Source of the DNA: an uncultured Gammaproteobacteria bacterium
GTDB taxonomy: Bacteria; Patescibacteriota; Microgenomatia; Woykebacterales; RBG-16-39-9b
Assembly: GCA_964367355.1 (NCBI GenBank)
Contig: CAYIWY010000004.1
Span: 35,976-99,975 of the forward strand
Reading direction: 5' to 3'
DNA: 64,000 bases
The notes under the pieces are model-generated. The model saw nothing but the letters and a program-made list of their open reading frames with translations, was not told the DNA's origin and ran no database searches. A program made the translations under genes and the position numbers. Shown here piece after piece: positions 6,140 to 62,895 of the stretch (its first letter is position 1; every line of letters starts with the position of its first letter).

Positions 6140-6997
6140 TTAATTTAATGCTATCGCTGCTGTAGAGATATCCAAAATTTCATTGGTAATATTGGCTTGT
6201 CTTACTTGGTTATAAGCGAGAGTCAGATCATCGACCAATTCAGAAGCATTATCCGAAGCATTTTTCATGGCCACCATTCGAGCCGAGTGTTCACTAGCCG
6301 AAGAATCTAAAAGAATTTGGTATATTTCCATCAATATATAATGTGGCAAAATAGCTTCCAAAACCAAGTCGGCACTTGGTTCAAAGAGATATTCATCAAC
6401 AGTCAAATCAGAGCTGTCAGAAAGTTTATTTATTATTTCTAGATCAATTATCGGAAAAAGTTGGCGAATAATTGCCTCTTGTTTCAGAGTTGAGTGAAAC
6501 TGGGTGTAGATCACGTGAATTTTATCAAATTCGTTACTTAAAAAAGCTTCGGTTAGAAAACGGGTAATTGTCCCAGCAAATTCCAAGGTTGGTTTGTCTA
6601 AAAGTTCAAAATCAGCTGCTAGTGGTTTGGCAGAGCGGCTGACAAAAACCTGGCCTTTTTTACCAAGTGTAATAAATGAAACATTTCCAGTTACGTCAAG
6701 AGATTTTTTGAAAAGATTAGAATTTAATGAACCACACAAACCGCGGTTGGTAGTAATCAACAGTATTCCTTGTTTTTCGTTTTTTTCTCGAGAAAGTAAA
6801 GGGTGAGAAGTCAAATCAATTTTAGTTGAAATATGTTGCAACACGTCATTCATCAAGGCCGAGTAGCGTCGCCCTTTAGTTGCTTGATCTTGGGCGCGGC
6901 GCATTTTTGCAGCTGAAACCATCTCCATGGCTTTGGTCACCTTGGAAGTATTTTTAATGGATTTAATTCTTTGTCTTAGTTCTTTAGTTCCTGCCAT
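6140..6997 (-). CDS. atpG: F1F0 ATP synthase subunit gamma
   Basis: N-terminal MAGTKELRQRIKSIKNTSKVTKAMEMVSAAKMRRAQ and conserved C-terminal helix. Confidence 0.9.
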   Translation of the reverse strand: MAGTKELRQRIKSIKNTSKVTKAMEMVSAAKMRRAQDQATKGRRYSALMNDVLQHISTKIDLTSHPLLSREKNEKQGILLITTNRGLCGSLNSNLFKKSLDVTGNVSFITLGKKGQVFVSRSAKPLAADFELLDKPTLEFAGTITRFLTEAFLSNEFDKIHVIYTQFHSTLKQEAIIRQLFPIIDLEIINKLSDSSDLTVDEYLFEPSADLVLEAILPHYILMEIYQILLDSSASEHSARMVAMKNASDNASELVDDLTLAYNQVRQANITNEILDISTAAIALN

Positions 6998-7000
6998 AAG

Positions 7001-8497
7001 TTACGCCTTAAATGATTTTTTGAAATCAACTGTAAATTTCTCTAACTCTTTTGTAATTTTCTCGGTTAAAACTTTCTCGTCCTTAATTTGTTTGAGTAGA
7101 TTTTTGCCTTTGGTGATTAAACTATCCAGGTATTTCTCCTGGAAAGAGCTGAGATTTTCAATTGCGATATCGTCTAGAAAACCATTAGTAACGGCCCAAA
7201 TTAAAACCACTTGCTGCTCGACTGGGATTGGGTTGTATTGGGGTTGTTTGAGAATTTCGACAATTCTACGACCGCGGTCAAGTTGGTTTTTTGTCGCTTC
7301 GTCTAGGTCTGAACCAAACTGGGCGAAAGCTTCGAGGCTGCGGAACTGTGCCAAATCAAGCCGCAGAGTTCCGGCAACAGATTTCATTGCCTTGATTTGG
7401 GCTGATCCTCCAACCCTGGAAACCGAGAGACCAACGTTGACAGCCGGGCGATTGCCTGCGTTAAACATATCCGATTCCAAGTAAATTTGTCCGTCGGTGA
7501 TAGAGATTACATTGGTTGGGATATAAGCTGAGACATCTCCGGCTTGAGTTTCGATAATTGGAAGAGCTGTCAAAGAACCGCCGCCATTATCCTTACTTAA
7601 ACGAGCTGCGCGTTCGAGTAGGCGAGAGTGGAGGTAAAAAATATCACCTGGGTAAGCTTCTCGACCAGAAGGTCGACGCAAAAGCAGGGAAATTTGACGG
7701 TAAGCCCAAGCGTGTTTTGAGAGATCGTCATAAATTGCTAAAGCATCTCTGCCTTGTTCCATAAAATACTCACCGATAGCACAGCCTGCATAGGGCGCTA
7801 GAAATTGCAATGATGCTGAATCCGAGGCTGAAGCTGCAACAACGATTGTATGATTCATTGCCCCATATTTTTCTAGAGTGTCGATGATTTGGGCAATTTT
7901 TGAAGTTTTTTGTCCGATAGCTACATAGATACAAATTACGCCGGAATCTTTTTGGTTAATGATTGTGTCAATGGTGATAGCTGTTTTACCAGTCCCCCGA
8001 TCACCAATGATCAACTCTCGTTGTCCACGCCCAATTGGAATCATACTATCAATTGCTTTAATACCGGTCTGTAGTGGGGTATTAACCGATTGTCTAGTAA
8101 TTACACCCGGAGCAATTTTCTCAATCGGATTGTCTTTGGTAGCTTTAAGTGGACCTTTTCCATCAATTGGGTTACCAAGCGGATCGACGACTCGACCGAT
8201 TAAACTTTCCCCAACTGGTATTGATAGAATTTTCCCGGTTGTTTCAACTTGATCACCTTCCTTTAGAATTTTGTAATCACCAAAAACAACAATACCAACT
8301 TGATCTTCTTCTAAGTTAAGTGCTAAACCAAAAAGTTCATAGGGAAGTTTGACTAGTTCGTTATAAGCAACTTCAGATAGACCTTCAACTTTGATAACTC
8401 CGTCCCCAATTTCAATTATTTTACCGACATTCTTTTTTGTCGTTGTTGTTTTTAATGATTCAATTTCCTTTTTAATTGTTTCTGCTAGTTTACTCAT
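7001..8497 (-). CDS. atpA: F1F0 ATP synthase subunit alpha
   Basis: Walker [11 protein letters not shown]; 498 aa. Confidence 0.95.
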
Positions 8498-27859: not shown

Positions 27860-28061
27860 GGATTTATACCTAAAAGGATGAGATGCCTTATAAGCTTGTT
27901 TTGTCCTAGCTTAGCCAAACAGATGAATGGGAACACTAGAAACAACCTATAACGGACTTATCACTCATCAAATATAGATATTAACAATTTTGTCACATAT
28001 AAGCAACCTTCAAGCGTGTTTAAACGAGAAAAAGGAAAATAACTTTTGATATAATCCAGTT

Positions 28062-47166: not shown

Positions 47167-47463
47167 ATGAAAACTGAAACTATCGATATAGACCAAATTA
47201 AAGAAAAGGTTTTGCCAATACTCAAAGAGGTAGGTGTCACTCGCAGTTCTATCTTTGGTTCTTTTGCTGCAGGTGAAAACACTAAGGACAGTGATATCGA
47301 TATTCTGATTGAGCCGCCTGAAAGTATGACGTTATTTGGTTTTGCTGGTCTAAAGTTGGAGTTGGAAGAAGCACTCGGTCGGGAAGTTGATTTGGTAGAG
47401 TATTCTGCTATTAAACCTCGTATTAAACAGCAATTACTAAGTACTCAAATTCCCATTCTATGA
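47167..47463 (+). CDS. nucleotidyltransferase (MNT/MntA-type antitoxin)
   Basis: GSFAAGENTKDSDIDILIE: a minimal nucleotidyltransferase fold with the GS...DxD motif. Confidence 0.85.
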   Translation: MKTETIDIDQIKEKVLPILKEVGVTRSSIFGSFAAGENTKDSDIDILIEPPESMTLFGFAGLKLELEEALGREVDLVEYSAIKPRIKQQLLSTQIPIL

Positions 47464-47813
47464 AAGAAGAAAAAAGAGACATGGGTCTTTATCTGGAAGA
47501 TGTTTTTGAAAGTATTAAGCAGATACAAGAATATACTGATGGTATTGAAGAGGATGAGTTTTATACTAATCAGTTAATCCAAGACGCAGTGGCGAGAAGA
47601 TTTGCAATTATTGGCGAGGGAGTTAAACACGTTCCTGAGTATTATCGAGAAAAACACCCGGAAACTAATTGGAAAAGTATTGCTGGTATGCGTGACATTC
47701 TTGTCCACGAATATTTTGAAGTCAATCTCAAAAGAATTTGGAATACAATTCAAGAAGAACTATCCACTTTTAAAGAGCAGATTAAGAACTTACCCGAAAT
47801 GTCTAATAGTTAA
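47460..47813 (+). CDS. HEPN-domain toxin (HepT/DUF86)
   Basis: Rx4HxY motif in MRDILVHEY. Overlaps the MNT gene by 4 nt. Confidence 0.85.
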   Translation: MKEEKRDMGLYLEDVFESIKQIQEYTDGIEEDEFYTNQLIQDAVARRFAIIGEGVKHVPEYYREKHPETNWKSIAGMRDILVHEYFEVNLKRIWNTIQEELSTFKEQIKNLPEMSNS

Positions 47814-47895
47814 GCAACTACTTAAAAACCTCCCACACTTAAGTAAATCTTGAATAAAGGTTTTCTTAGGACAAGTAACTAGCTGAAAGGCTAGT

Positions 47896-48035
47896 TTTTT
47901 TAGTCCACGAAGTGGTCGCAGAACGCTTTATCGATCATTAGATTTCTTAACCGCAGAGAGCAAAGCGAACTATTGGCTAAAATGGTTAAATCTGAGGCTA
48001 AAAAACGATGGGGGGAGCTTGGTATCAAAAAGGGT
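47896..48035. repeat. tRNA-locus-derived repeat, copy R, abutting tRNA-His
   Basis: CCACGAAGTGGTCGCAGAACGCTTTATCGATCATTAGATTTCTTAACCGCAGAGAGCAAAGCGAACTATTGGCTAAAATGG... reads directly into the tRNA-His 3' end. Confidence 0.6.
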
Positions 48036-48036
48036 A

Positions 48037-48113
48037 CTGGGGGGGAGTATGGGACTTGAACCCATGACATGTAGTTCCACAAACTACCGCTCTACCAACT
48101 GAGCTAACTCCCC
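48037..48113 (-). tRNA. tRNA-His (anticodon GTG) with encoded G-1 and CCA
   Basis: Reverse complement folds as GGGGAGT/ACTCCCC acceptor, anticodon loop TTGTGGA, an extra 5' G pairing with discriminator C. Confidence 0.85.
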
Positions 48114-48119
48114 CACGAA

Positions 48120-48196
48120 GTGGCGCGCCTGAAGGGACTCGAACCCCCAACACCCAGTTCCGAAGACTGGTGCTCTATCCAATTGAGCTACAGGCG
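48120..48196 (-). tRNA. tRNA-Arg (anticodon TCG)
   Basis: Reverse complement GCGCCTGTAGCTCAATTGGATAGAGCACCAGTCTTCGGAACTGG...TTCGAGTCCC...CAGGCGCGCCA. Confidence 0.85.
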
Positions 48197-48331
48197 CTTG
48201 CAGTAGGTGTATTTTAACAAATTTAACCTAAAATTGATAGTTCTGTGGTGGTTTTGAAGCGGGCGCGTAAATTATGTGAAACTAATCTTAGCTCATTTTG
48301 ATAGGTTGATAAAATTGCACGAAGCGTTAAT

Positions 48332-48604
48332 CTATTTGTACAACTGGCTATGTGTTCCTAAAGCTTCGAAAGTAATAATTATTGTACCTAATTTATCTGT
48401 GCTTTCACTATAAAGAGCTCTCCAGTCACCAGTAATATTAATACTTCGGTAGTCTTTTAATTTTCCTTTTAACAAATGGTTATTGAGCAGGGGATCAAGA
48501 GGGTTCTGTAGGAAAAGTTTTATTCTTTCTTGAAAAGCTAATTTTATCTTTGGTTCCGTCCTGACGTATAGCTTAGAAAACTTTCTGCTGAATTTAATTT
48601 TCAT
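48332..48604 (-). CDS. RelE/ParE family toxin
   Basis: LKGKLKDYRSINITGDWRALY, the RelE/ParE fold signature. Confidence 0.7.
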   Translation of the reverse strand: MKIKFSRKFSKLYVRTEPKIKLAFQERIKLFLQNPLDPLLNNHLLKGKLKDYRSINITGDWRALYSESTDKLGTIIITFEALGTHSQLYK

Positions 48605-48887
48605 TACTTGTTGATCTATTTAACCAAGTAATGGCGTCGTCAGCATTATCGAATTGAGGGGATACCTTCCCCTTCTCGATGTCTTCTTTTGATTCTTTGA
48701 GAACTGTTAGGAGATACTCAGTTGGAAGCTCATCAGAAACACTGAAACTAACGCTCTTAGTTTTGATAAGTTGCTTTAAATAGGCATTAATCAAAGAACT
48801 AAGACTAAAACCTAACTCATCAGCCACTTCCTTGGCTTTTGTTTTGGTTTCTGGATTGGTTTTAATATTAATTACACTAGAATTCAT
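48594..48887 (-). CDS. RelB/DinJ-type antitoxin
   Basis: INIKTNPETKTKAKEVADELGFSLSSLINAYLKQLI. Overlaps the toxin gene by 11 nt. Confidence 0.65.
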   Translation of the reverse strand: MNSSVINIKTNPETKTKAKEVADELGFSLSSLINAYLKQLIKTKSVSFSVSDELPTEYLLTVLKESKEDIEKGKVSPQFDNADDAITWLNRSTSNEN

Positions 48888-49029: not shown

Positions 49030-49104
49030 TGGAGCGGCGGACCAGATTCGAACTGGCGACCTTCTCCTTGGAAGGGAGACATTCTACCGCTGAACTACCG
49101 CCGC
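49030..49104 (-). tRNA. tRNA-Gly (anticodon TCC)
   Basis: Reverse complement GCGGCGGTAGTTCAGCGGTAGAATGTCTCCCTTCCAAGGAGAAGGTCGCCAGTTCGAATCTGGTCCGCCGCTCCA. Confidence 0.85.
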
Positions 49105-50736: not shown

Positions 50737-51153
50737 TTGTTTAAAATGGCAAAAATACTTTTGGTCGGTTCAGACCCTTCGATTACCGATATGTACGTTA
50801 AGGTACTCGAAACGAACGGGTTTGATAGCATAATTGAAAATACAGCCAAAGATGGGCTTGACCGTTTGTCAGATGAGTTTTTTCCGGCAACCATAGTTTT
50901 TCTGCCACGGGAGGAAAGCCTTTGGTTTCTAATTAAACTTAGAGCTTTTCATAGTGTTAAGGTTTCTTCGATTCCAGTTTTGGCCGTTGCTGATGAGTCC
51001 AGTGAAAATTTCATTGAATTTATTGAAAGTGGTGCCACCAAAGTTATTTCCAAATTCCCAACCAGCGGTGATAAAATCGTAACTGAACTTAGGAATATAT
51101 TAAATATTCCAAGAATGCGTCCAAACAATGAAGCAAACCAGTTCAAGAATTGA
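50737..51153 (+). CDS. receiver-like domain protein lacking the phospho-acceptor Asp (pseudo-receiver)
   Basis: CheY-like fold pattern (ILLVGSD...VLAVAD...TKVISK), but the D54-equivalent region reads IVFLPREE. Confidence 0.5.
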   Translation: MFKMAKILLVGSDPSITDMYVKVLETNGFDSIIENTAKDGLDRLSDEFFPATIVFLPREESLWFLIKLRAFHSVKVSSIPVLAVADESSENFIEFIESGATKVISKFPTSGDKIVTELRNILNIPRMRPNNEANQFKN

Positions 51154-51487
51154 AAGTTTTAAATATGCCGGTGATGGTTTAAAACATGCTTTTTATACCC
51201 AGGCAAATTTTCAGATTCAACTTACCTGTGGAATAGTTGTTTTGGTATTCGCGTTTGTTTTTAAGTTCAATCGTTTCGAATGGCTGATTTTGATAATTAC
51301 AGTTGGATTAGTTTTAATAGCTGAACTCCTTAATACTGTAATCGAAGTAGTGGTAGACCTGGCGGTTCAGGAAAAGCTGATTCCTGAGGCAAAAATTGCT
51401 AAGGATGTTTCCGCTGCGGCTGTACTTTTGACTAGTATAATTTCCGTTGTTGTTGGGATAATCCTCTTTTGGCCACACCTCTTCTAA
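51128..51487 (+). CDS. dgkA: diacylglycerol kinase / undecaprenol kinase family
   Basis: AELLNTVIEVVVDL...AKDVSAAAVLL pattern with three TM helices. Confidence 0.8.
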   Translation: MKQTSSRIESFKYAGDGLKHAFYTQANFQIQLTCGIVVLVFAFVFKFNRFEWLILIITVGLVLIAELLNTVIEVVVDLAVQEKLIPEAKIAKDVSAAAVLLTSIISVVVGIILFWPHLF

Positions 51488-52470
51488 TCAGCAAACATTT
51501 CAGTAAACATTTTTCCGTATTTAACTGTATCGTAAACCCCAATTCCAACTCGAGTATATTTAGTTGAAATCATTGATTTTAAATGATTGGGAGAACGCAG
51601 GAAACCTTCGTGAGCTGTAATTGCGTCTGGAGCGAAAGATAGGTTCTCGGCTAAGGAATTAAAAATTAAATTTTCAGCAAGTGCTCGATCGTAAGGACTT
51701 TTTCCCTTCGGGTCAATGTGACCGAAGTAGCTCTCATCGATCATGGCCTTTGAGTGGTCGCGGGCGATTTTTGTTATCAGATGGTCTGATTGAAGCTGCG
51801 GTAAATTTTTTTCAACTCGAGTTTGATTTAAGGCGATAAAAAGTTGTTTTTCCGAGTCTGTGTCTAAAATAGCTTTGTGGTCAGGAATCGATAAACGCAC
51901 GAAACTATCGCTGTCTTGTTTTGTCGAGGTAATGGAAATAATACCTTCCCGAATTGAGCGTGAAAAAGCTTGTTCTAGCGGAACATTAAAGCGAGTTGTA
52001 AAGGGCAGTAGATTGCCGACAATTTTTGAGGACGTCAGGGCCGTTTTTACGCTGGTTGGTATTGGTAAGACGATTATGACAGTAGAAATAAAGGAAATTA
52101 TCAAGAAACTAGAAAACAAATTTGGGACAAGTCCCAAGTAGCGGTTAAATCTTGAAAGAATTAAGGTCATTGGTAGTTTTTTGAAAAAATCATTAAAAAA
52201 AGCACTAAAGAGAACCTCGACAAAGATAAAGATGAAGATAAAAGAAATTAAATTTACCAACTCTGACCTAAATCCAATATAAACAAGTATGAAAGATAGT
52301 AGTGGGAAAAGAGAAATAGAACTAACTAAGGAAATTGAAAAACCCAAAAATTCAAAAAACTGTGCTAAAAAACCGCGTTTAAAAACAAACGCAGCATAAA
52401 TAACAACGAATAAAATAATTCCTAAATCTACCCAATTAAAACCCATTAGCATTTCGAATCTTAGTTCCAT
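51484..52470 (-). CDS. CvpA-family membrane domain fused to a YkwD-like CAP/SCP extracellular domain
   Basis: N-terminal MGFNWVDLGIILFVVIYAAFVFKRGF (CvpA-like, four TM). C-terminal SPYDRALAENL...AENLSF...FLRSPNHLKSMI...RVGIGV, the CAP-domain pattern. Confidence 0.7.
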   Translation of the reverse strand: MELRFEMLMGFNWVDLGIILFVVIYAAFVFKRGFLAQFFEFLGFSISLVSSISLFPLLSFILVYIGFRSELVNLISFIFIFIFVEVLFSAFFNDFFKKLPMTLILSRFNRYLGLVPNLFSSFLIISFISTVIIVLPIPTSVKTALTSSKIVGNLLPFTTRFNVPLEQAFSRSIREGIISITSTKQDSDSFVRLSIPDHKAILDTDSEKQLFIALNQTRVEKNLPQLQSDHLITKIARDHSKAMIDESYFGHIDPKGKSPYDRALAENLIFNSLAENLSFAPDAITAHEGFLRSPNHLKSMISTKYTRVGIGVYDTVKYGKMFTEMFAD

Positions 52471-52568
52471 CCCCAGGGCAAAGTAATTACGTTAGTAGAA
52501 GCAAGAACTGCGATGATTGCTATTACTAAGGCTGTTAAAGCAATATAAAGCGTTGTGTTTTTTGACAA
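52461..52568 (-). CDS. 35-aa hydrophobic peptide (MSKNTTLYIALTALVIAIIAVLASTNVITLPWGWN), TTG start
   Basis: AAGGAGGTGA site. The stop overlaps the ATG of the CvpA-CAP gene (ATGGAACTAA). Paralogous to the peptide at 52600..52707. Confidence 0.45.
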   Translation of the reverse strand: MSKNTTLYIALTALVIAIIAVLASTNVITLPWGWN

Positions 52569-52599
52569 TTAAATCACCTCCTTATAATTTAAGCTAAAA

Positions 52600-52707
52600 T
52601 TAGTTAAATCCCCAAGGTAAAGTTATCACGTTCGTTGAAGCAAGCACAGCAACAACAGCTACTACTAATGCGATAAGTGCGACCCAGAGGGCCGTGTTTT
52701 TAGGCAT
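52600..52707 (-). CDS. 35-aa hydrophobic peptide (MPKNTALWVALIALVVAVVAVLASTNVITLPWGFN)
   Basis: CAAGGAGGTGACA site then ATG. About 70% identical to the downstream paralog. Confidence 0.45.
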   Translation of the reverse strand: MPKNTALWVALIALVVAVVAVLASTNVITLPWGFN

Positions 52708-52795
52708 ATTTAAATTGTCACCTCCTTGAGAAAATTAATGAGTTGTTGGGTAGTCATTTGCGATAGATAAATTGTCCTATTCTTTGGTAATTTTG

Positions 52796-54262
52796 TCAAA
52801 CTGAAGAGTCTCCTTTTGGTAAACTGACAAAAAAAGTAGAGCCTTGATTGGTTTTTGATTCAAACCAAATCTTACCTCCGTGAGTCTCAGCAATAACACG
52901 CGATAGATACAAACCTAAACCTAAACCTTGATAATCGTATTGTAAAAGATCAGTGGCCCGATGAAATTTCTTAAACACTAATGGAATTTCCTTTTCGGAT
53001 ATGCCAATACCAGTATCTTTTACACTAACGACAAAATTGTTCTTATCCTCTTCAATAGCTAATGTGACTGAACCGCTGTCCTTGTTAAATTTAATCGCGT
53101 TTTCAACAAGGTTGTTAAACAAAAGTTTTAATCTAGTGCTATCTCCGTTAATAAAATAGTTTTCTGCCGGGGAAACAAAATGGAGTGAAACTTTTTTTGC
53201 CAAAGCCGCAGGTGAATAAAGAGAAATAACCTGATTGATTATTGAAGCTAGATCTAGCTTTGACTCGGTAGAAATTTTTTTATCGGTTTCCAGAGACACA
53301 ATACTTAAAAATTCCTCCACCAGACTTTCAAGTTTTGAAACTGCGACTGAAATAGCCTTGTACTTATCCTTGTAAGGTTTTGTTGCTTTTGGATCTGCAA
53401 TTAACTGGCTAGTGTAGCCTTTTAGAATAGTTAAAGGCGTACGAAGGTTATGGGAAGCAATGATAATAAACTCGTCCTTAAGCCTATCCAAATCCTTTAG
53501 GTCTTCAATATTTTTTTGTAGGGAGCTGGCCATATTGTTTACCGATCCTGCTAAAGTTTCAAGCTCATCACCGGTAACTACAGATATTCTTTCGTTTAGT
53601 TTACCTTTGCTAACTAGTATGGCACCTGAGACAATCTTCTCGATTGGGGAAACAATTAAACGGTTGACTGTAAATAATACAATCAAAGTTGACAATATTG
53701 CGACTAAAAAACTAGTACCCAGTACAATCGCAATTGTGTAAACAAGACTTTCACGAATGCTATCGTAATTTAAGAAAAAACGAAATGAATATGGGTGTGC
53801 CCCAAAATCGTCAAAGAAAGGTTCAATAATCACGGTTACTTCACCAAGACTGTTTTTGAATTCACTGTGTGTGTCGGAATTAACCGCATTTATTGTTTCT
53901 AGTTCAGTAATTTTTCTATCAGAATTACTCGGGGTAGCGGAGTCATAAAGTACGACTGCATTAACGTCAATTATTTGGAAACTTCGTACACTTTTTTCAA
54001 GCTCTAGTGTTTTTTCAGTTATTTCTCTCATTTTGATATCACCCGAGTCAAAATAGGTTTCGTAAGCACTAGCTAGCGGTTTGACCGAAAGACTAGTAAA
54101 ACCCCGTGCCGAATTTAGGAGGGCCTGTCTTTGGTCGCTTAATTGGTAGGTAATAAATACTATTGAGATCAGGGCGGCCAGAAGAAATAAAATAGAAAGT
54201 AGTAAGATAAGAAACTTTACTTTAAGTGATTTTTTAGCAAATCTGAACATGGGCAGGCTCAT
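52796..54262 (-). CDS. membrane sensor histidine kinase
   Basis: Two TM helices flanking an extracytoplasmic loop, H-box IIASHNLRTPLTILKGY, and HATPase_c motifs. Confidence 0.85.
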   Translation of the reverse strand: MSLPMFRFAKKSLKVKFLILLLSILFLLAALISIVFITYQLSDQRQALLNSARGFTSLSVKPLASAYETYFDSGDIKMREITEKTLELEKSVRSFQIIDVNAVVLYDSATPSNSDRKITELETINAVNSDTHSEFKNSLGEVTVIIEPFFDDFGAHPYSFRFFLNYDSIRESLVYTIAIVLGTSFLVAILSTLIVLFTVNRLIVSPIEKIVSGAILVSKGKLNERISVVTGDELETLAGSVNNMASSLQKNIEDLKDLDRLKDEFIIIASHNLRTPLTILKGYTSQLIADPKATKPYKDKYKAISVAVSKLESLVEEFLSIVSLETDKKISTESKLDLASIINQVISLYSPAALAKKVSLHFVSPAENYFINGDSTRLKLLFNNLVENAIKFNKDSGSVTLAIEEDKNNFVVSVKDTGIGISEKEIPLVFKKFHRATDLLQYDYQGLGLGLYLSRVIAETHGGKIWFESKTNQGSTFFVSLPKGDSSV

Positions 54263-54279
54263 GATTTAATAGGGATACT

Positions 54280-56007
54280 TTAGTAGCTTTTGTTTCGGAT
54301 TTCTCGACCGGTTACTGACTCAAGTATGAAGTCAGCTAAAGCATTTGTTGAAAAGTCGTAATTGTTGCGAAGTACAAATGTATTAGTTATAGAGTAAAGA
54401 GGGACAACAGGAACATCAGCAACAATTTCTTCAACTAAGCTTTCGAGTAGTTTTTTCCTTTCGGTTGGAACAAAACTTTTGTTTATCTTGTCAATTTCTT
54501 GATCGACTTTTGAATTCGAATAACTTAGAAGATTGGAATCTGCCTCTGTGCGGAAAATGCCGTCAATGTATTCTCCACCGTCATTAGCCGTCGGACCTGC
54601 AATAAAGGCTGCTGCTTTTCCGGAAAACAGATCTTTGACTAGTGAACCGAAGGTTTCAACGGTTATAACGCTTGTTTTAATATCGGAGTCTGCTAGTTCT
54701 GCAGAAACAGCCTTAGCAACCTCTTCACGGTCGGCTGTAGTATAAATATCGAACTCAAGATTTGCTGAATTGGCATCTTTAAGTAGTGCCTTTGCCTTGA
54801 CTGTGTCCTTAACACTGTCTTGAATTTCGCTGTTGTAGCCGACAATTGATTTAGTAATGAATTGGTTGGCTTTTTTTCCAGAGACGGATGCGACTTTGAT
54901 GACATTGTTATTATCGATAGAAAGTTTAACTGCTTCTCTTACGTTTTTTTGTAACAAAGGGTTTGGCTTACCATTCAATTTTGTGGCAGCAAAATTGATC
55001 AATAACATGACAACTCTAGGTTCGTCTTCCTGGCGGATTTGAAATTCATCCCCCAAATTTGTTTGCTTTGTTTCTACCCGTGCATAGTCAATTTCCTTAT
55101 TTTTTAACGCTTTAAGCATGTCGTCGTCAGTTTCATAAACGATAAATTTAGCCGTCTTAAGCTTTGGTTTTTCACCCCAGTAGCCATCAAACCGCTCAAC
55201 TTCAGCTTTTTTATCTTTTGTGAAACGCACGATTTTAAACGGGCCGGTTCCGGAAACCTTATCCAAACCATCGCGTTCAATTTGCTTTTTGGAAAGAATG
55301 TAAACGTCAGTAATACGATTTAGTAATATTGGGTCCGGTTTACTTGTAATTATATCCACGGTTTTGTCGTCAATTATTCTTATTTCTTTAATTGTTGAAA
55401 CTGAGTTTGTTGAGGGCCAAGATTTTTCTTCATTGTCGGCGTTTTCTAAGACCTGGTCAAATGAGTATTTAACATCATCAACCGTTAGTATGTCCCCAGA
55501 CTGGAATTTAATTCCAGTACGAATGGTGAACCGCCAGGTTGAAGTATCCGGGTTAGTCCATTTGGTTGCAATTGCGGGAACGATACTCGATCCTCGAACC
55601 TTAGTCAGAGCTTCAAATACCGCGTCATTAAAATTATTAGCGTCAACTGTGGGTGGATTTGAACTTGTTGGATATATTCCTGACAATGTTGTCCATCCTA
55701 AGTTAATTTGTTCAGTTTCCAATCCAGTCACGACCCTGGCTTCTTTGGGTTTTTCCTTAAGGAAAAAGATATAAGCCAGGAAAGCCCCAATAGATAGAAT
55801 TAGAAGAAAAATAATAATTTTTGAGAAATTTCCAAAAGAAAAATTTGCTTTTTGAGGATTAATTGTGCTCACTTGAGCGCTGGCTGATGTTTGTTCTTCA
55901 GGCATTGTTATAATTATAGCAAATTTTGAAAATGTAAAGCAATGGACACAAATTTCCGATACGGAGGGTTTGCCAACGCAGGGGACGGTAGACAAAAAAG
56001 CGTACAA
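54280..56007 (-). CDS. ABC transporter substrate-binding protein, family 5 (peptide/nickel type), membrane-anchored
   Basis: SBP_bac_5 architecture. The real start is probably the internal MPEEQTSAS, just before the TM anchor. Confidence 0.8.
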   Translation of the reverse strand: MYAFLSTVPCVGKPSVSEICVHCFTFSKFAIIITMPEEQTSASAQVSTINPQKANFSFGNFSKIIIFLLILSIGAFLAYIFFLKEKPKEARVVTGLETEQINLGWTTLSGIYPTSSNPPTVDANNFNDAVFEALTKVRGSSIVPAIATKWTNPDTSTWRFTIRTGIKFQSGDILTVDDVKYSFDQVLENADNEEKSWPSTNSVSTIKEIRIIDDKTVDIITSKPDPILLNRITDVYILSKKQIERDGLDKVSGTGPFKIVRFTKDKKAEVERFDGYWGEKPKLKTAKFIVYETDDDMLKALKNKEIDYARVETKQTNLGDEFQIRQEDEPRVVMLLINFAATKLNGKPNPLLQKNVREAVKLSIDNNNVIKVASVSGKKANQFITKSIVGYNSEIQDSVKDTVKAKALLKDANSANLEFDIYTTADREEVAKAVSAELADSDIKTSVITVETFGSLVKDLFSGKAAAFIAGPTANDGGEYIDGIFRTEADSNLLSYSNSKVDQEIDKINKSFVPTERKKLLESLVEEIVADVPVVPLYSITNTFVLRNNYDFSTNALADFILESVTGREIRNKSY

Positions 56008-58722: not shown

Positions 58723-59649
58723 TTGAAGCTTAATTCTAGGCTAGACTTGAATAAAGAAAGCAAAAAAACTGTGGAAGAAAATCCTAAGCTTAATTCAGTT
58801 CCGCCAACAACAGAAGCCTACAACCGAGCGATTCGGGAATTGACGCATGCCAACTTGCGTTTGCATCAATTGGATAAGGCAAAGGATGAGTTTATTTCCA
58901 TCGCCAGCCACGAACTACGCAACCCGATGGCAATTATTAAAGGGACCATTAGTATGATTTTGGCGGGGGATGATGGTGAAATTAACCCCGAGGTTAAGAA
59001 TGATTTGAGGGATGTAATGGTTGTAGTTGCTCGCCAAATTAGAATGGTTAATGAACTACTCGATATTTCCCGAATTGAAGCAGGGGTAATCTATTTTAAT
59101 TTACTTTCCGAGCTTGATCTTGTGAATTTAGCGCATTTGCTTGAGGCTTCACTGAATTTGGTTGCCGATCAGAATAGTGTTAAAATAGTTGTTGTACCTA
59201 GTCCAAATATTCCCAAAATTCAAGGTGATCAGGACAAAATTTCCCAAGTATTGATTAATTTAGTTTCCAATGCCTTAAAATTTACAAATAACGGATCAAT
59301 CACAGTTAGCTTCAAAAAAGCTGGTGATTTTGTTGTAACTTCGGTAACCGATACTGGATCTGGAATGCCGGAAGAAAAAAAGGAGGAATTATTTAAAAAA
59401 TTTACCAAACCAGCTGATCCAACGGTAGCGACTATGTCAACTGGAAGCGGGTTGGGACTTTATATTTCGAAAAAATTTGTCGAGCACTTAGGTGGTAAAC
59501 TTTGGCTTGAAAGAAGTGAACCTGGAAAAGGTTCGACCTTTTGCTTTTCAATGCCAATTACTGGGAGCACTTCAGCCAAAGAGGTAGAGGATGATATTGC
59601 GGTGTTACAAAATCTTAAGCAAGTTTATTTTAAAACTAAAGGAGGATAG
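58723..59649 (+). CDS. soluble histidine kinase (DHp + CA only)
   Basis: H-box FISIASHELRNPMAIIKGTI, N box LINLVSNALKF, G boxes DTGSGM and GSGLGL. No TM helix. Confidence 0.8.
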   Translation: MKLNSRLDLNKESKKTVEENPKLNSVPPTTEAYNRAIRELTHANLRLHQLDKAKDEFISIASHELRNPMAIIKGTISMILAGDDGEINPEVKNDLRDVMVVVARQIRMVNELLDISRIEAGVIYFNLLSELDLVNLAHLLEASLNLVADQNSVKIVVVPSPNIPKIQGDQDKISQVLINLVSNALKFTNNGSITVSFKKAGDFVVTSVTDTGSGMPEEKKEELFKKFTKPADPTVATMSTGSGLGLYISKKFVEHLGGKLWLERSEPGKGSTFCFSMPITGSTSAKEVEDDIAVLQNLKQVYFKTKGG

Positions 59650-59653
59650 CAAA

Positions 59654-60022
59654 ATGAGTAAAGTCGTTTTAGTTGAAGATGATGAGCTGTTTGTAAAAAT
59701 GTATCAGAAGAAATTTGTCCGTGAGGGTATTGATCTGGATGTTGCTTTTAACGGTGAAGACGGTTTTAACAAAATAAAGGAATTAAAACCTGATATTGTA
59801 ATTTTGGATTTAATGATGCCAAAAATGGGTGGTGTGGAGGTTTTACGTAAGCTTAGTGCAGATTCAGATTTGAAAGACATACCGGTGATTGTGATGACAA
59901 ATCTTAATGCTGGTTCCGAAGAAGTCAACGAAGCAATGAGTTTAGGAGTAAAGGAAACCGTCTTAAAAACCGATGTAACACCAGAACAAATTGTTGGCAT
60001 TGTCAGAAAATATCTAACATAG
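59654..60022 (+). CDS. single-domain response regulator (receiver)
   Basis: KVVLVEDDELF...IVILDLMMPKMGG...KTDVTP. Start chosen at MSKV, downstream of the ORF-track start. Confidence 0.8.
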   Translation: MSKVVLVEDDELFVKMYQKKFVREGIDLDVAFNGEDGFNKIKELKPDIVILDLMMPKMGGVEVLRKLSADSDLKDIPVIVMTNLNAGSEEVNEAMSLGVKETVLKTDVTPEQIVGIVRKYLT

Positions 60023-61708
60023 ATGAAATTATCAAATCAAGAAATAAAAGATTCAGTTGTTAAATCTGGTTTTGTTACTAACGAGGATTTGAAACAAGCT
60101 GAAAAAATAGCCCACGATCAAAACCGCTCATTGGTTGAAATTTTGATTGAACGGGGAATTTTGGTTGAGAAATTTTTAGGTCAAATTTTAGCTGAAACAT
60201 TAAACTATCCTTACGTAGATTTGCGTAACAAGATTATCCCGGATGAGATTCTAAACTTAATTGATGAAAAATTTGCCAGCGAACACCGAATCCTCGTTTT
60301 TGATAAGCACGATAAGACCTTATCTCTGGCAATGGAAAATCCGGATGATATCGAAATCGTCGAGTTTATCAAAAAGAAAACTAACTTTTTGGTGGAAGTG
60401 TTTTTCAGTTTGCCGGCGGTTATGGATGAAGGTTTGGATCAATACCGCAAAGATATTCAACTCGATTTTGAAAAATCTATTTCGAAACATATTTCGCAGG
60501 CGGAAAAAATGGCAATTCTGGGGGCGGCGGATTTACCGGTTGTCAAAATACTAGACGCTCTGCTTGATTACGCGGCCAGTGAACAAGCGTCTGATTTGCA
60601 TATTGAAAACGTCGGTGACCGTCTGGTGGTGCGCTTTCGGATTGACGGTAAGCTCAAAGACGTACTCGATTTACCCGACAAAATCCAATCTGGTCTAATA
60701 ACCAGAATAAAAATTCTAGCAAATCTACGTACCGACGAGCATCGCATACCCCAAGACGGGCGTTTTCGTTTTAGACATCGGGTTGACGAAATTTCTGTCA
60801 GGGTTTCGATATTGCCGACGTTCCATGGAGAGGACGCTGTCTTGAGATTGCTTTCCTCGGCGGCTCGTCCCAAAACCCTTGAAGGTTTGGGATTAACAGG
60901 GTCCAATTTGCAAAAAATTGAAGCAGAATTAAAAAAACCACACGGCATGATTCTTTCGACTGGTCCGACCGGTAGTGGAAAAACAACAACTTTGTACAAC
61001 ATTTTGACAATTTTAAATACGGCCGAAGTTAACATTTGTACAATTGAAGATCCAATTGAGTATGGTTTGGCTCGGGTTAACCAAACGCAAGTTAATCCTG
61101 CGGCTGGGTTAACTTTTGCCAATGGGCTGCGGTCAATACTGCGACATGATCCTGACATTATTCTAGTCGGTGAAATTCGTGATCAAGAAACTGCCGAAAT
61201 TGCTATTCACTCCGCTTTAACCGGACATCTGGTACTTTCGTCACTACACACAAACGATGCTATCGGGGCAATCCCAAGATTAATCGATCTTGGAGCGCAG
61301 GCGTATTTGATTGGTTCTAGTTTAAGTTTGGTTATCGCTCAAAGGCTAGTTTCGCGCAATTGTCAAAGTTGTTTGGTTGTCGAGGAGATAAAACCGGATA
61401 TGCTCAAGTTACTGAAAACCGAATTTGGTACGGAAACCCCAGAGAATTTCCTGAAAGAAGCAAAACAGCATCGTGGTAAAGGCTGCAAAGTCTGCAACAA
61501 TGAAGGTTTTCACGGTCGAATCGGTATTTTTGAAGTGCTAGACATTAGTGAAAAAATCAAAGAGCTTATTTATACTAAAGCGCCAGTTAACGAAATTGAA
61601 GCAGAGGCAAAAAGAGAAGGTTTCAGCCGGATGTTTATCGATGGCTTAGCCAAAGTGCAAGCTGGCCAGACAACGATCGAGGAAGTTTTCGGAGCGGTCA
61701 GAGAATGA
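60023..61708 (+). CDS. pilB: type IV pilus assembly ATPase PilB (GspE family)
   Basis: N-terminal GSPII domain, Walker A LSTGPTGSGKTTTLY, Asp/His boxes, and a tetracysteine motif (CQSC...CKVC). Confidence 0.9.
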   Translation: MKLSNQEIKDSVVKSGFVTNEDLKQAEKIAHDQNRSLVEILIERGILVEKFLGQILAETLNYPYVDLRNKIIPDEILNLIDEKFASEHRILVFDKHDKTLSLAMENPDDIEIVEFIKKKTNFLVEVFFSLPAVMDEGLDQYRKDIQLDFEKSISKHISQAEKMAILGAADLPVVKILDALLDYAASEQASDLHIENVGDRLVVRFRIDGKLKDVLDLPDKIQSGLITRIKILANLRTDEHRIPQDGRFRFRHRVDEISVRVSILPTFHGEDAVLRLLSSAARPKTLEGLGLTGSNLQKIEAELKKPHGMILSTGPTGSGKTTTLYNILTILNTAEVNICTIEDPIEYGLARVNQTQVNPAAGLTFANGLRSILRHDPDIILVGEIRDQETAEIAIHSALTGHLVLSSLHTNDAIGAIPRLIDLGAQAYLIGSSLSLVIAQRLVSRNCQSCLVVEEIKPDMLKLLKTEFGTETPENFLKEAKQHRGKGCKVCNNEGFHGRIGIFEVLDISEKIKELIYTKAPVNEIEAEAKREGFSRMFIDGLAKVQAGQTTIEEVFGAVRE

Positions 61709-61811
61709 ACCTCCGAGGGTTAAAACCCTCGGTTTCATCTCTAAAGTTTCGTTTTCTTCGGTCTTCATCCGTGGATTAAGAATCCACGGTTTTAGGCACG
61801 CGAAAATAAAA
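61706..61811 (+). repeat. 100-nt dual-hairpin repeat, copy 2, between pilB and pilC
   Basis: Near-identical to 42633-42738 and again begins at the TGA stop codon. Confidence 0.85.
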
Positions 61812-61812
61812 T

Positions 61813-62895
61813 ATGAAACTGCCCACCTTTTTTTCAAATTCAAAAAATATCAAGCTAACAGATGCGGATAATTTATTTATTTTGGAAAGTCTTTCCGCAA
61901 TGCTGTCTTCTGGTATTCCCATAAGCGAAGCTCTAAGCTCAATTGACGAAGACACAAATAGCAAAAAAACCAAGCAGGTGGTACGGACAATTAATGAAGA
62001 AATCAGTAGTGGAAAATCGCTTTCCGAAAGCTTTGGACGTTTTCCTGAAAGTTTCGATCCGGTTTTTTTAAGCATTGTCAAATCTGGCGAAGCAAGTGGC
62101 AAGCTTGATTCTGTTTTACAAAACGCCTCTAAAAATTTGAAAAAAAATATTGAAACAAAAGGGAACATAAAATCAGCTCTGCTGTATCCAGTAATAATAA
62201 TCGGTGTTTTGTTTTTGGTTGCTTTCTTGGTTTTTGGTTACTCGCTACCGAAAGTCGCTAAGGTCTTTTTTGATTTACATTTAAAATTGCCAGCGTACTC
62301 CACGTTTGTTTTAAAAATGGCACTTTGGTTTGGGGATAATAAAATGACCATTGTGACAATCTCGGTTTTTATTGTTTTTTTGTTTTATTTACTTCTCAAG
62401 TTCAAAAAAATTAAGAGTTTTCTCTTTCGTATTCTTTTTAGCTTGCCAATTATCTCAAATATTGTGCGCCTCAAGGACTTTTCAAGTTTTACCCAAACAA
62501 CTGGACTACTTTTAAATGCTGGAGTACCGATTATTAATGCTTTTGAAATTTCGAAAAACGTTGTAGTTTCAGAAAAATTACGAAATGACTTAACACGAGT
62601 TATTACCGAATTAACTGAAGGTTCAACTCTGTCGAAAAGCATGAAAACAGCTTCAAAAAGTTTTCCTTCTCTTTTGCGTCGGGTGGTAAGTGTTGGAGAG
62701 GAAAGTGGGAAGCTAGATCAATCTTTAGCGGATATCTCAGAATATTATGAGCATAAATTTACTGAGGTTATTAAAAATTTAACTGTGATTATCGAACCAG
62801 TTTTGATCATTTTTATCGCGGTTTTAGTGGCGTTAGTCTTGGTTAGCGTTATTTTACCTATCTATCAAGGTATCGGTACTATCAACCGACAATAG
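61813..62895 (+). CDS. pilC: type IV pilus platform protein PilC (GspF family)
   Basis: Two GspF repeats and three TM helices; 360 aa. Confidence 0.85.
   Translation: MKLPTFFSNSKNIKLTDADNLFILESLSAMLSSGIPISEALSSIDEDTNSKKTKQVVRTINEEISSGKSLSESFGRFPESFDPVFLSIVKSGEASGKLDSVLQNASKNLKKNIETKGNIKSALLYPVIIIGVLFLVAFLVFGYSLPKVAKVFFDLHLKLPAYSTFVLKMALWFGDNKMTIVTISVFIVFLFYLLLKFKKIKSFLFRILFSLPIISNIVRLKDFSSFTQTTGLLLNAGVPIINAFEISKNVVVSEKLRNDLTRVITELTEGSTLSKSMKTASKSFPSLLRRVVSVGEESGKLDQSLADISEYYEHKFTEVIKNLTVIIEPVLIIFIAVLVALVLVSVILPIYQGIGTINRQ

Follow-up and report, generated by a model that had tools for sequence, protein, structure and literature searches.

Two short genes on the minus strand of a 64-kb stretch of an uncultured bacterium's genome (contig CAYIWY010000004.1, assembly GCA_964367355.1; the whole stretch of 64,000 nucleotides is called the window below) encode paralogous hydrophobic peptides, and these are real protein-coding genes under strong purifying selection. 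They lie in tandem between the gene of a membrane histidine kinase (HK), itself preceded by the gene of a family-5 substrate-binding protein (SBP), and a gene that fuses a CvpA membrane domain to a CAP domain (CvpA-CAP). The peptides constitute an undescribed, phylogenetically narrow family within a previously undescribed four-part cassette of uncultured groundwater bacteria. Annotation systematically misses small membrane proteins, and a defined set of partners is known for few of them. In the present case, clear evidence of function is combined with a fixed genomic partnership with an SBP lacking a transporter, a sensor kinase and CvpA-CAP.

Conservation and expression signals of the peptide genes

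Peptide 1 (MPKNTALWVALIALVVAVVAVLASTNVITLPWGFN) and peptide 2 (MSKNTTLYIALTALVIAIIAVLASTNVITLPWGWN) are 74% identical, and the exact sequence of peptide 1 is present as a called protein in NCBI and Logan data. To collect relatives, referred to below by locus numbers, DNA was fetched around nine CvpA-CAP homologues (45-90% identity) and two peptide matches from an exhaustive search, with one locus each from a genome and a metagenome scan. In 10 distinct relatives and the window we counted 23 peptide copies, all of them 34-36 amino acids (aa) long and without insertions or deletions between positions 1 and 34. Every fetched relative with usable upstream sequence carries one to four tandem copies directly upstream of CvpA-CAP: one in L005 and L010; two in the window, L001/L008, L004, L007, L009 and the P0016 contig; three in L002 and L006; and four in L011/L012. 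The consensus is MPKNTxLWxAxxALVxAVxAxLAxxxVITLPWxWx, with K3, L22, P31 and W32 invariant in an alignment of 26 sequences.

By Nei-Gojobori counts, the proportion of synonymous differences (pS) is 0.45-0.83, mostly saturated, and the nonsynonymous proportion (pN) is 0.05-0.25. For the orthologues of peptide 1 in L001, L005, L006 and L009, pN is 0.10-0.19 and pS is 0.60-0.83; the corresponding values for the orthologues of peptide 2 in L001 and L007 are 0.05-0.07 and 0.65-0.77. The ratio omega is 0.04-0.19 where computable, and the signal of selection is observed also between the two paralogues of the window. The fixed length, the saturated synonymous sites, the held protein sequence and the strong ribosome-binding sites thus identify the peptides as genuine genes. 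An earlier sequence-only reading of the window had proposed two tandem single-helix paralogues of 35 residues, a proposal that these data bear out; its authors had named missing protein-level conservation and missing synonymous-biased substitution as the outcome that would speak against it, and the omega values clearly contradict that outcome.

The string AAGGAGGTGA precedes each of the two peptides, and these are the only copies of this 10-mer on both strands of the window, where about 0.1 are expected by chance; few large genes of the window carry even a GGAGG. Thus, the strong Shine-Dalgarno site noticed earlier before each peptide is real, and the ribosome-binding sites of the peptides are the strongest in the window. 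Sites of the GGAGGTG type are found for 20 of the 23 copies, and two of the three exceptions are located at contig ends. No Shine-Dalgarno site precedes the third and most divergent copy in L002 (5806..5913; MPKGITLVVIILVCLIVVTAVLVGTRVISLPWVWE), the sole such case among copies whose upstream sequence is complete; this gene may be in decay or may depend on translational coupling. In L011/L012, each of the four tandem peptides (6856..7398) has its own strong ribosome-binding site, and the tail has the variant form VIS(L/F)PW(I/A)(G/W)(G)R.

The best promoter-like match between positions 51000 and 56400 is TTGACA-17-GACAAT (10 of 12 positions), where the -35 box overlaps the stop codon of the HK gene. 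L001, L005, L007 and L009 have kept this site, and L011 has a similar one. In L002 and L010 the site is absent, and the ribosome-binding site of the first peptide abuts the HK stop there. The start of CvpA-CAP usually has no Shine-Dalgarno site. Judging from these signals, the peptides and CvpA-CAP look like one expression unit, either read through from the kinase gene or served by its own promoter, and the peptides look to be translated much more strongly than CvpA-CAP.

All copies share one layout. A five-residue N-terminus, MPK(N/G)T and nearly invariantly MPKNT, holds the only constant positive charge and is followed by an unbroken apolar run at residues 6-23. Residues 24-26 are variable and mostly polar; they precede the conserved tail (V/I)I(T/S)(L/F)PW, and the last two to four residues vary again. 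The peptides carry a net charge of about 0 to +1 and are neither cationic nor amphipathic. W8 and W32 are 24 residues apart, a spacing that matches the placement of aromatic side chains at both membrane interfaces. Positions 10, 13, 17 and 20 hold small residues in 24, 23, 20 and 24 of the 26 sequences, respectively; at neighbouring helix positions such residues are found in 0-1 of the 26, except for position 12 (6 of 26). With this 3-4-3 spacing they form a stripe on one face of the helix. In the same five genomes, identity is 55-66% for the peptide helix, 33% for the N-terminal anchor of the SBP, 40-54% for the CvpA helices and 67% for the first transmembrane helix of the HK. Because the peptide helix is more conserved than the plain anchor of the SBP, it is constrained well beyond mere hydrophobicity.

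Partner proteins and distribution of the cassette

The open reading frame (ORF) 52470..51484 matches Pfam Colicin_V (PF02674) at residues 14-152 (39.4 bits, cutoff 29.3) and Pfam CAP (PF00188) at residues 213-318 (39.3 bits, cutoff 21.1). It also matches the NCBIfam models YkwD (1.9e-20) and MarP N-terminal region (3e-7), and stays below the NCBIfam equivalog cutoffs (73 vs 171 for YkwD, 23 vs 200 for DalA). The AlphaFold2 model of the protein has a predicted local distance difference test score (pLDDT) of 74 overall and above 85 for the CAP domain, with four long helices. A Foldseek search with the CAP domain model returned the bacterial SCP proteins 4ifa (E 4e-8, root-mean-square deviation 1.0 A) and 4d53 (TM-score 0.91). 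The protein is a member of the CvpA family and of the CAP/SCP/YkwD superfamily; the fusion had been recognized from the sequence, and it is confirmed here by Pfam and, for the CAP fold, by the structural model. The model and the positive-inside rule suggest four transmembrane helices, with the N-terminus and the YkwD-like CAP domain both outside.

Homologues of the fusion (41-90% identity) are 322-326 aa long, and those read begin at the equivalent of M7 of the window ORF, with ML(M/L/F)GFNW. These lengths and starts indicate that CvpA-CAP most probably starts at 52452, 8 nt past the stop of peptide 2, and that the longer ORF from 52470 is probably not used. This modifies one part of the sequence-only reading, according to which the stop of peptide 2 overlaps the start codon of the fusion gene. 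The string ATGGAACTAA, in which the stop overlaps an ATG, is indeed present; translational coupling through this overlap is not conserved, and the start probably lies 18 nt further on. In relatives, the distance from the last peptide stop to the CvpA-CAP start is mostly 6-25 nt (43 nt in L002 and 90 nt in L005), and the two never overlap.

The SBP is 541 aa long when counted from MPEEQ, and the mechanical ORF extends to 56007; its homologues have 538-542 aa and start with MPEE or MPTP. No permease or ATPase gene was found beside the SBP gene in five different upstream contexts, and thus it is an orphan SBP paired with the kinase. Its nearest named or solved relatives are of the NikA/Opp5A, CntA and DppA types, all below family cutoffs. 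Family-5 SBPs also bind nickel, haem, AI-2 and chitin oligosaccharides (PMC8050422). The presence of a membrane HK and a family-5 SBP immediately upstream on the same strand, as stated in the sequence-only reading, is confirmed by Pfam. The label "peptide-sensing" given there to the SBP exceeds the evidence, since the nearest relatives are below cutoff and the family binds varied ligands, including non-peptide ones.

The HK has two transmembrane helices (at about 17-37 and 175-197) around an extracytoplasmic domain of about 135 aa, followed by HAMP, HisKA and HATPase_c domains. The nearest NCBIfam models are MtrB and WalK, both below cutoff, and PADLOC matches the kinase to the candidate model PDC-M43B over the ATPase region (E 3.7e-9). 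In loci covering both genes, namely the window, L001, L002, L005, L008, L011 and the P0016 contig, the HK gene always directly follows the SBP gene. SBP-dependent kinases are an established class, and the CBP-ChiS pair uses a family-5 SBP (PMC8050422). The adjacency of the SBP and kinase genes outside a transporter operon, by which such pairs are recognized, is observed here; the ligand-loaded SBP would be expected to bind the sensor domain of the kinase and change its activity.

The order SBP, HK, peptides, CvpA-CAP is found in L001, L002, L005, L007, L008, L011, L012 and the P0016 contig, and shorter contigs contain fragments consistent with it. The cassette is kept despite five different upstream contexts and several downstream ones. 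Even in the most divergent locus, where CvpA and CAP are called as separate genes, the order is retained. Thus, the linkage of the peptides to CvpA-CAP, HK and the family-5 SBP is conserved in every relative with enough sequence.

The family has a narrow distribution. With a two-sequence profile, an exhaustive hmmsearch across 1.84 billion representative proteins yielded five clusters, all of 34-36 aa, and the two that could be placed are both located within the same cassette. The genome scan with CvpA-CAP found one locus, L001 (CAYHXX010000001.1), and the metagenome scan with the peptide alignment added only one more, L010. L001 is near-identical to L008, a contig from the 0.1-um fraction of Hainich groundwater; such fractions are among the sources of the relatives. 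These groundwater samples, the annotation of a distant CvpA-CAP homologue as Candidatus Curtissbacteria and the sparse use of Shine-Dalgarno sites suggest that the window probably belongs to a genome of the Patescibacteria/CPR type. The gene content of L001 points the same way, and its labelling as an uncultured gammaproteobacterium is probably an error. A word-indexed protein search with the two peptides concatenated (a single one is below the 40-aa minimum) found nothing, and a hidden Markov model run on the six-frame translation of the window found no further paralogue. Searches of Pfam, NCBIfam, PHROGs, PADLOC and PDB sequences gave no meaningful match for the peptides. When 18 peptides were compared with Pfam and NCBIfam at E values up to 1, only generic transmembrane noise of at most 13 bits was obtained, and no membership in the MgrB or SafA families was found in these two collections. 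PADLOC had no match for CvpA-CAP or the SBP either. We found no account of this cassette in the literature on CvpA with CAP, small proteins or Patescibacteria.

Farther relatives of the fusion (28-30% identity), one of them annotated as Candidatus Curtissbacteria, lack both the peptides and adjacent SBP and HK genes; the peptides are therefore specific to the clade in which CvpA-CAP is joined to SBP and HK. In one such locus (L013, 1180..7050; 28% identity), two genes for class A penicillin-binding proteins are the divergent neighbours of the fusion gene and a LytR_C gene is close by, a neighbourhood that hints at a cell-wall role for the fusion protein. In L011/L012, PurN-, PurL- and PurQ-like purine-synthesis genes are located downstream of CvpA-CAP, recalling the cvpA-purF operon of E. 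coli.

Possible roles of the peptides

We tentatively favour, at somewhat less than even probability, the interpretation that the peptides are membrane-resident micro-proteins in N-in/C-out orientation that act as accessory or modulatory subunits of an envelope module of the kinase and CvpA-CAP. The short N-terminus with its invariant lysine would stay in the cytoplasm, residues 6-23 would cross the membrane once, and the tail with its Pro-Trp pair would lie where the outer face of the membrane meets water, sharing that side with the CAP domain, the SBP and the sensor domain of the kinase. Under the positive-inside rule, Lys3 of the peptides and the CvpA loops KRG and KK..R..R lie in the cytoplasm, which places the peptide tail and the CAP domain outside. 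The small-residue stripe would give the helix a face suited to tight helix-helix packing. Remaining in the membrane as abundant subunits, the peptides may pack against the transmembrane helices of the kinase, of CvpA-CAP or of both, or against one another, and the tryptophan tail may touch the extracytoplasmic domains. The peptides and CvpA-CAP would probably be made from one transcript initiated where the kinase gene ends, at the conserved promoter-like site; translation of the peptides would be far more efficient than that of CvpA-CAP. Conservation over the full length of the peptides, including the transmembrane helix and the N-terminus, fits a membrane-resident micro-protein somewhat better than a peptide signal. 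Weak hints at a cell-envelope context are provided by the MtrB and WalK models for the HK, the MarP-like CvpA part, the DalA-related CAP domain and the distant fusion adjacent to penicillin-binding-protein genes.

Natural analogs of such peptides are known. MgrB and SafA modulate PhoQ, while AcrZ, KdpF and CydX join larger membrane complexes (AcrB is the partner of AcrZ). All these proteins have fewer than 50 residues, a single transmembrane helix in N-in/C-out orientation and a short functional extracytoplasmic tail; their genes are located beside or within the operon of the machinery they serve and are typically missed by annotation. The size of the peptides described here and their predicted topology, with Lys3 inside, an apolar helix of 18 residues and tryptophans at both interfaces, fit this format of small kinase regulators. 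The differences are the absence of sequence similarity, the one to four tandem paralogues with very strong ribosome-binding sites, and the partners, an orphan family-5 SBP, a kinase and a CvpA-CAP fusion, with which an interaction is suggested by analogy. The fusion protein, in turn, resembles MarP (Rv3671c), which also has a four-helix CvpA membrane domain bearing an extracytoplasmic domain; the outer domain of MarP is a protease rather than CAP, and the matches are well below family cutoffs. The CAP domain is related at the domain level to YkwD and weakly to the DalA model. To our knowledge, neither MarP nor DalA has partner micro-proteins. DalA is a peptidoglycan-binding divisome lipoprotein (PMC10470522).

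Several observations weigh against a role as membrane subunits. The copy number varies from one to four, and different paralogue types are retained in different genomes; such variation, combined with ribosome-binding sites stronger than any others in the window, is a pattern more usual for secreted or highly abundant peptides than for sub-stoichiometric regulators like MgrB. Distant CvpA-CAP fusions lack such peptides, and hence the peptides are not an obligate CvpA subunit. A Rosetta-stone test of the peptide-less fusions found no extra N-terminal helix resembling a peptide; the longer fusions (338-349 aa) have unrelated extensions that do not resemble membrane segments. In a Fourier analysis, the column entropy of the peptide helix gave no peak at 100 degrees, and for this reason we rely only on the directly visible stripe of small residues. 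Finally, position 25 is always T, A or S, and 24 of the 26 sequences have A, V, I or L at position 23, which would be compatible with signal-peptidase cleavage before residue 26.

In the main rival scenario, which we consider rather unlikely, the peptides are pheromone-like precursors. A hydrophobic C-terminal fragment of 9-11 residues, for example NVITLPWGFN, would be released from the N-in/C-out precursor, captured by the anchored SBP and reported to the kinase. The cut could be made by signal peptidase after residue 25, in agreement with the -3/-1 rule, or within the helix by a site-2 protease of the RseP/Eep type, which the very short ectodomain would suit; CvpA-CAP might aid release or processing. 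The format is like that of the known SHP, PrgQ and ComS precursors, in which a hydrophobic core joins a short basic N-terminus to a conserved, aromatic octamer at the C-terminus. The tight pairing of an orphan SBP with an HK, never beside transporter genes, conforms to the established class of SBP-dependent kinases that includes CBP-ChiS with its family-5 SBP (PMC8050422). Tandem amplification, turnover of paralogue types and the exceptional ribosome-binding sites also favour a secreted product, and the last two to four residues differ among copies, as residues that determine a pherotype might. On the other hand, the presumed leader is conserved like the presumed mature part (MPKNT is nearly invariant, the alanine stripe is fixed, and insertions and deletions are absent); in the same genomes, conservation of the helix is about double that of a plain anchor helix. 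The cassette has no DNA-binding response regulator by which autoinduction might be closed into a loop, and the only receiver nearby lacks the phospho-acceptor Asp; it has no dedicated exporter or protease gene either. The SBP is closest to the DppA and NikA types and not to the OppA types that bind long peptides.

The precursors in SHP/Rgg, PrgQ/iCF10 and ComS/XIP are 17-35 residues long and run from a basic N-terminus through a hydrophobic core to 7-10 conserved C-terminal residues of hydrophobic and aromatic character, and a family-5 binding protein (PrgZ or OppA) is involved, as could be the case here. In those systems, however, the peptide is imported by the Opp permease to a cytoplasmic RRNPP receptor, whereas here the SBP is paired with a membrane kinase, and both the helix and the N-terminus show far stronger conservation than would be expected of a leader to be discarded. 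No gene for an RRNPP receptor (Rgg, PrgX, PlcR) or Opp permease was found in the cassette or the flanks of any locus, where the neighbours are HK, CvpA-CAP, a diacylglycerol kinase (DAGK), a pseudo-receiver and YidC. CBP-ChiS, TorT-TorS and LuxP-LuxQ have the SBP gene beside the kinase gene without transporter genes, and the extracytoplasmic domain of the kinase is located between two transmembrane helices, as in the present HK; CBP is itself a family-5 SBP (PMC8050422). None of these systems has small membrane peptides or CvpA-CAP, and the present cassette has no DNA-binding response regulator. We know of no pair of a family-5 SBP and a kinase that senses a self-encoded peptide. The complete form of this scenario, a self-contained extracellular circuit of an undescribed kind in which the 35-mers are cut to a tryptophan-containing decapeptide that is passed by the transporter-less SBP to the kinase, with CvpA-CAP aiding release or turnover, seems to us rather doubtful, a little more so than a pheromone origin in general. 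If true, it would represent quorum or kin sensing in ultra-small, probably episymbiotic groundwater bacteria and would give a peptide-handling role to the long-enigmatic CvpA family.

The remaining explanations carry little probability. Membrane-damaging peptides, either a set of leaderless or class II bacteriocins that CvpA would help to produce, as for colicin V, or small hydrophobic toxins of type I toxin-antitoxin systems, seem improbable to us. The peptides are indeed small, hydrophobic and tandemly repeated, Aureocin A70-type clusters are known to carry up to four short peptides, and CvpA was named for its requirement in colicin V production; a sub-threshold similarity to a holin-type transmembrane segment (phrog_297, E 0.42) carries no weight. 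But the cassette contains no double-glycine leader, ABC exporter, C39 peptidase, immunity or modification gene, and the nearly uncharged peptides with their unbroken apolar helix do not have a cationic amphipathic fold. They are syntenic core genes under purifying selection, with neighbours conserved down to 40-50% identity, and not strain-variable accessory genes; neither PADLOC nor PHROGs has a match for them. Type I toxins are typically held under tight translational repression, whereas the peptide genes have a perfect, exposed Shine-Dalgarno site and a consensus-like promoter. The suggestion of a bacteriocin-like module in the sequence-only reading thus rests solely on the historical name of CvpA and is not supported. 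Still more improbable is that the ORFs matter only through the act of translation, as regulatory upstream ORFs or leader peptides tuning CvpA-CAP, or that they are conserved for a DNA or RNA reason while their products do nothing themselves. Their location just upstream of a gene mostly without its own Shine-Dalgarno site is in line with this idea, and some termination-reinitiation coupling is plausible. However, synonymous sites are saturated while amino acids are held, even between paralogues of one genome, and a leader ORF would need neither a fixed length, nor motifs invariant at the protein level, nor up to four copies with strong ribosome-binding sites of their own. A reading of LPW as a sortase signal was rejected, as the order of motif and helix is reversed.

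The consequences differ between the two main scenarios. As ligands of the SBP-kinase pair, the peptides would provide new wiring for peptide signalling; as membrane subunits, the reading we prefer, they would add a well-defined family to the MgrB/AcrZ class. The cassette is a testable handle on the function of the CvpA family, on bacterial CAP domains at the cell surface, and on the sensing of envelope or neighbours in genome-reduced uncultured bacteria. Its reach and immediate testability are limited by the narrow distribution and by the uncultured hosts.

Gene order and neighbourhood of the locus

The whole region is on the minus strand and is transcribed in the order SBP, HK, peptide 1, peptide 2, CvpA-CAP. 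The gaps are 17 nt between SBP and HK, 88 nt between HK and peptide 1, and 31 nt between the two peptides.

Features of the cassette in the window
Feature	Position	Strand	Basis
Orphan family-5 SBP, N-terminal transmembrane anchor	54280..55905	-	Pfam SBP_bac_5, E 3.3e-55
Membrane sensor HK, 488 aa	52796..54262	-	Pfam HAMP, HisKA, HATPase_c
Promoter-like site TTGACA-17 nt-GACAAT	52771..52799	-	Consensus match
Shine-Dalgarno site AAGGAGGTGA of peptide 1	52718..52727	-	10-mer match
Peptide 1, 35 aa, ATG start, paralogue type A	52600..52707	-	ORF and orthologues
Shine-Dalgarno site AAGGAGGTGA of peptide 2	52574..52583	-	10-mer match
Peptide 2, 35 aa, TTG start, paralogue type B	52461..52568	-	ORF and orthologues
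CvpA-CAP fusion, 322 aa from MLMGFNW (probable start)	51484..52452	-	Pfam Colicin_V and CAP; homologue lengths

A terminator-like hairpin with a T-run is located at 52372..52395 on the minus strand, about 60 nt inside the CvpA-CAP coding region, and overlaps the conserved AAFVFKRGF codons. It was given no weight as a terminator, since such matches occur at chance level in the region (four found, 4.3 expected) and this one overlaps the conserved KRGF coding motif.

The 3' end of CvpA-CAP (51484) overlaps by 4 nt the end of a convergent DAGK-family gene (51128..51487, plus strand). The start of the latter is overlapped by a receiver-like gene (50746..51153, plus strand; 135 aa), whose product keeps the conserved Lys, lacks the phospho-acceptor Asp (D57 of CheY) and has the acidic pair D12/D13 replaced. 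The form without Asp is conserved in L005-L008. This protein looks like a pseudo-receiver that near the cassette is invariably accompanied by a gene of the diacylglycerol/undecaprenol kinase family.

The region 58723..62895 on the plus strand holds a second two-component pair. Its kinase (308 aa) shows no obvious membrane helices, and its receiver (59591..60022) is a true single-domain one. Type IV pilus genes follow directly after the receiver: a PilB-like gene (T2SSE, 60023..61708) and a PilC-like gene (T2SSF, 61813..62895). Given these genes 8 kb away, the peptides were considered as type IV or Flp pilins, and this was rejected, as they have no processing motif of the form G/F-T-L-I-E or G-x-x-x-x-E-Y.

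The window also contains an Rfam DUF3800-V RNA motif (27876..27970, minus strand; 55.7 bits, gathering score 37.4). Two small toxin-antitoxin-like pairs are situated among tRNA genes (48041..48197 and 49033..49104) at 47167..48887. One of them is a nucleotidyltransferase/HEPN-like pair (47167..47813, plus strand); the other is a RelB/YafQ-like pair (48332..48887, minus strand), the equivalents of which in L006 are annotated as RelB and YafQ_toxin.

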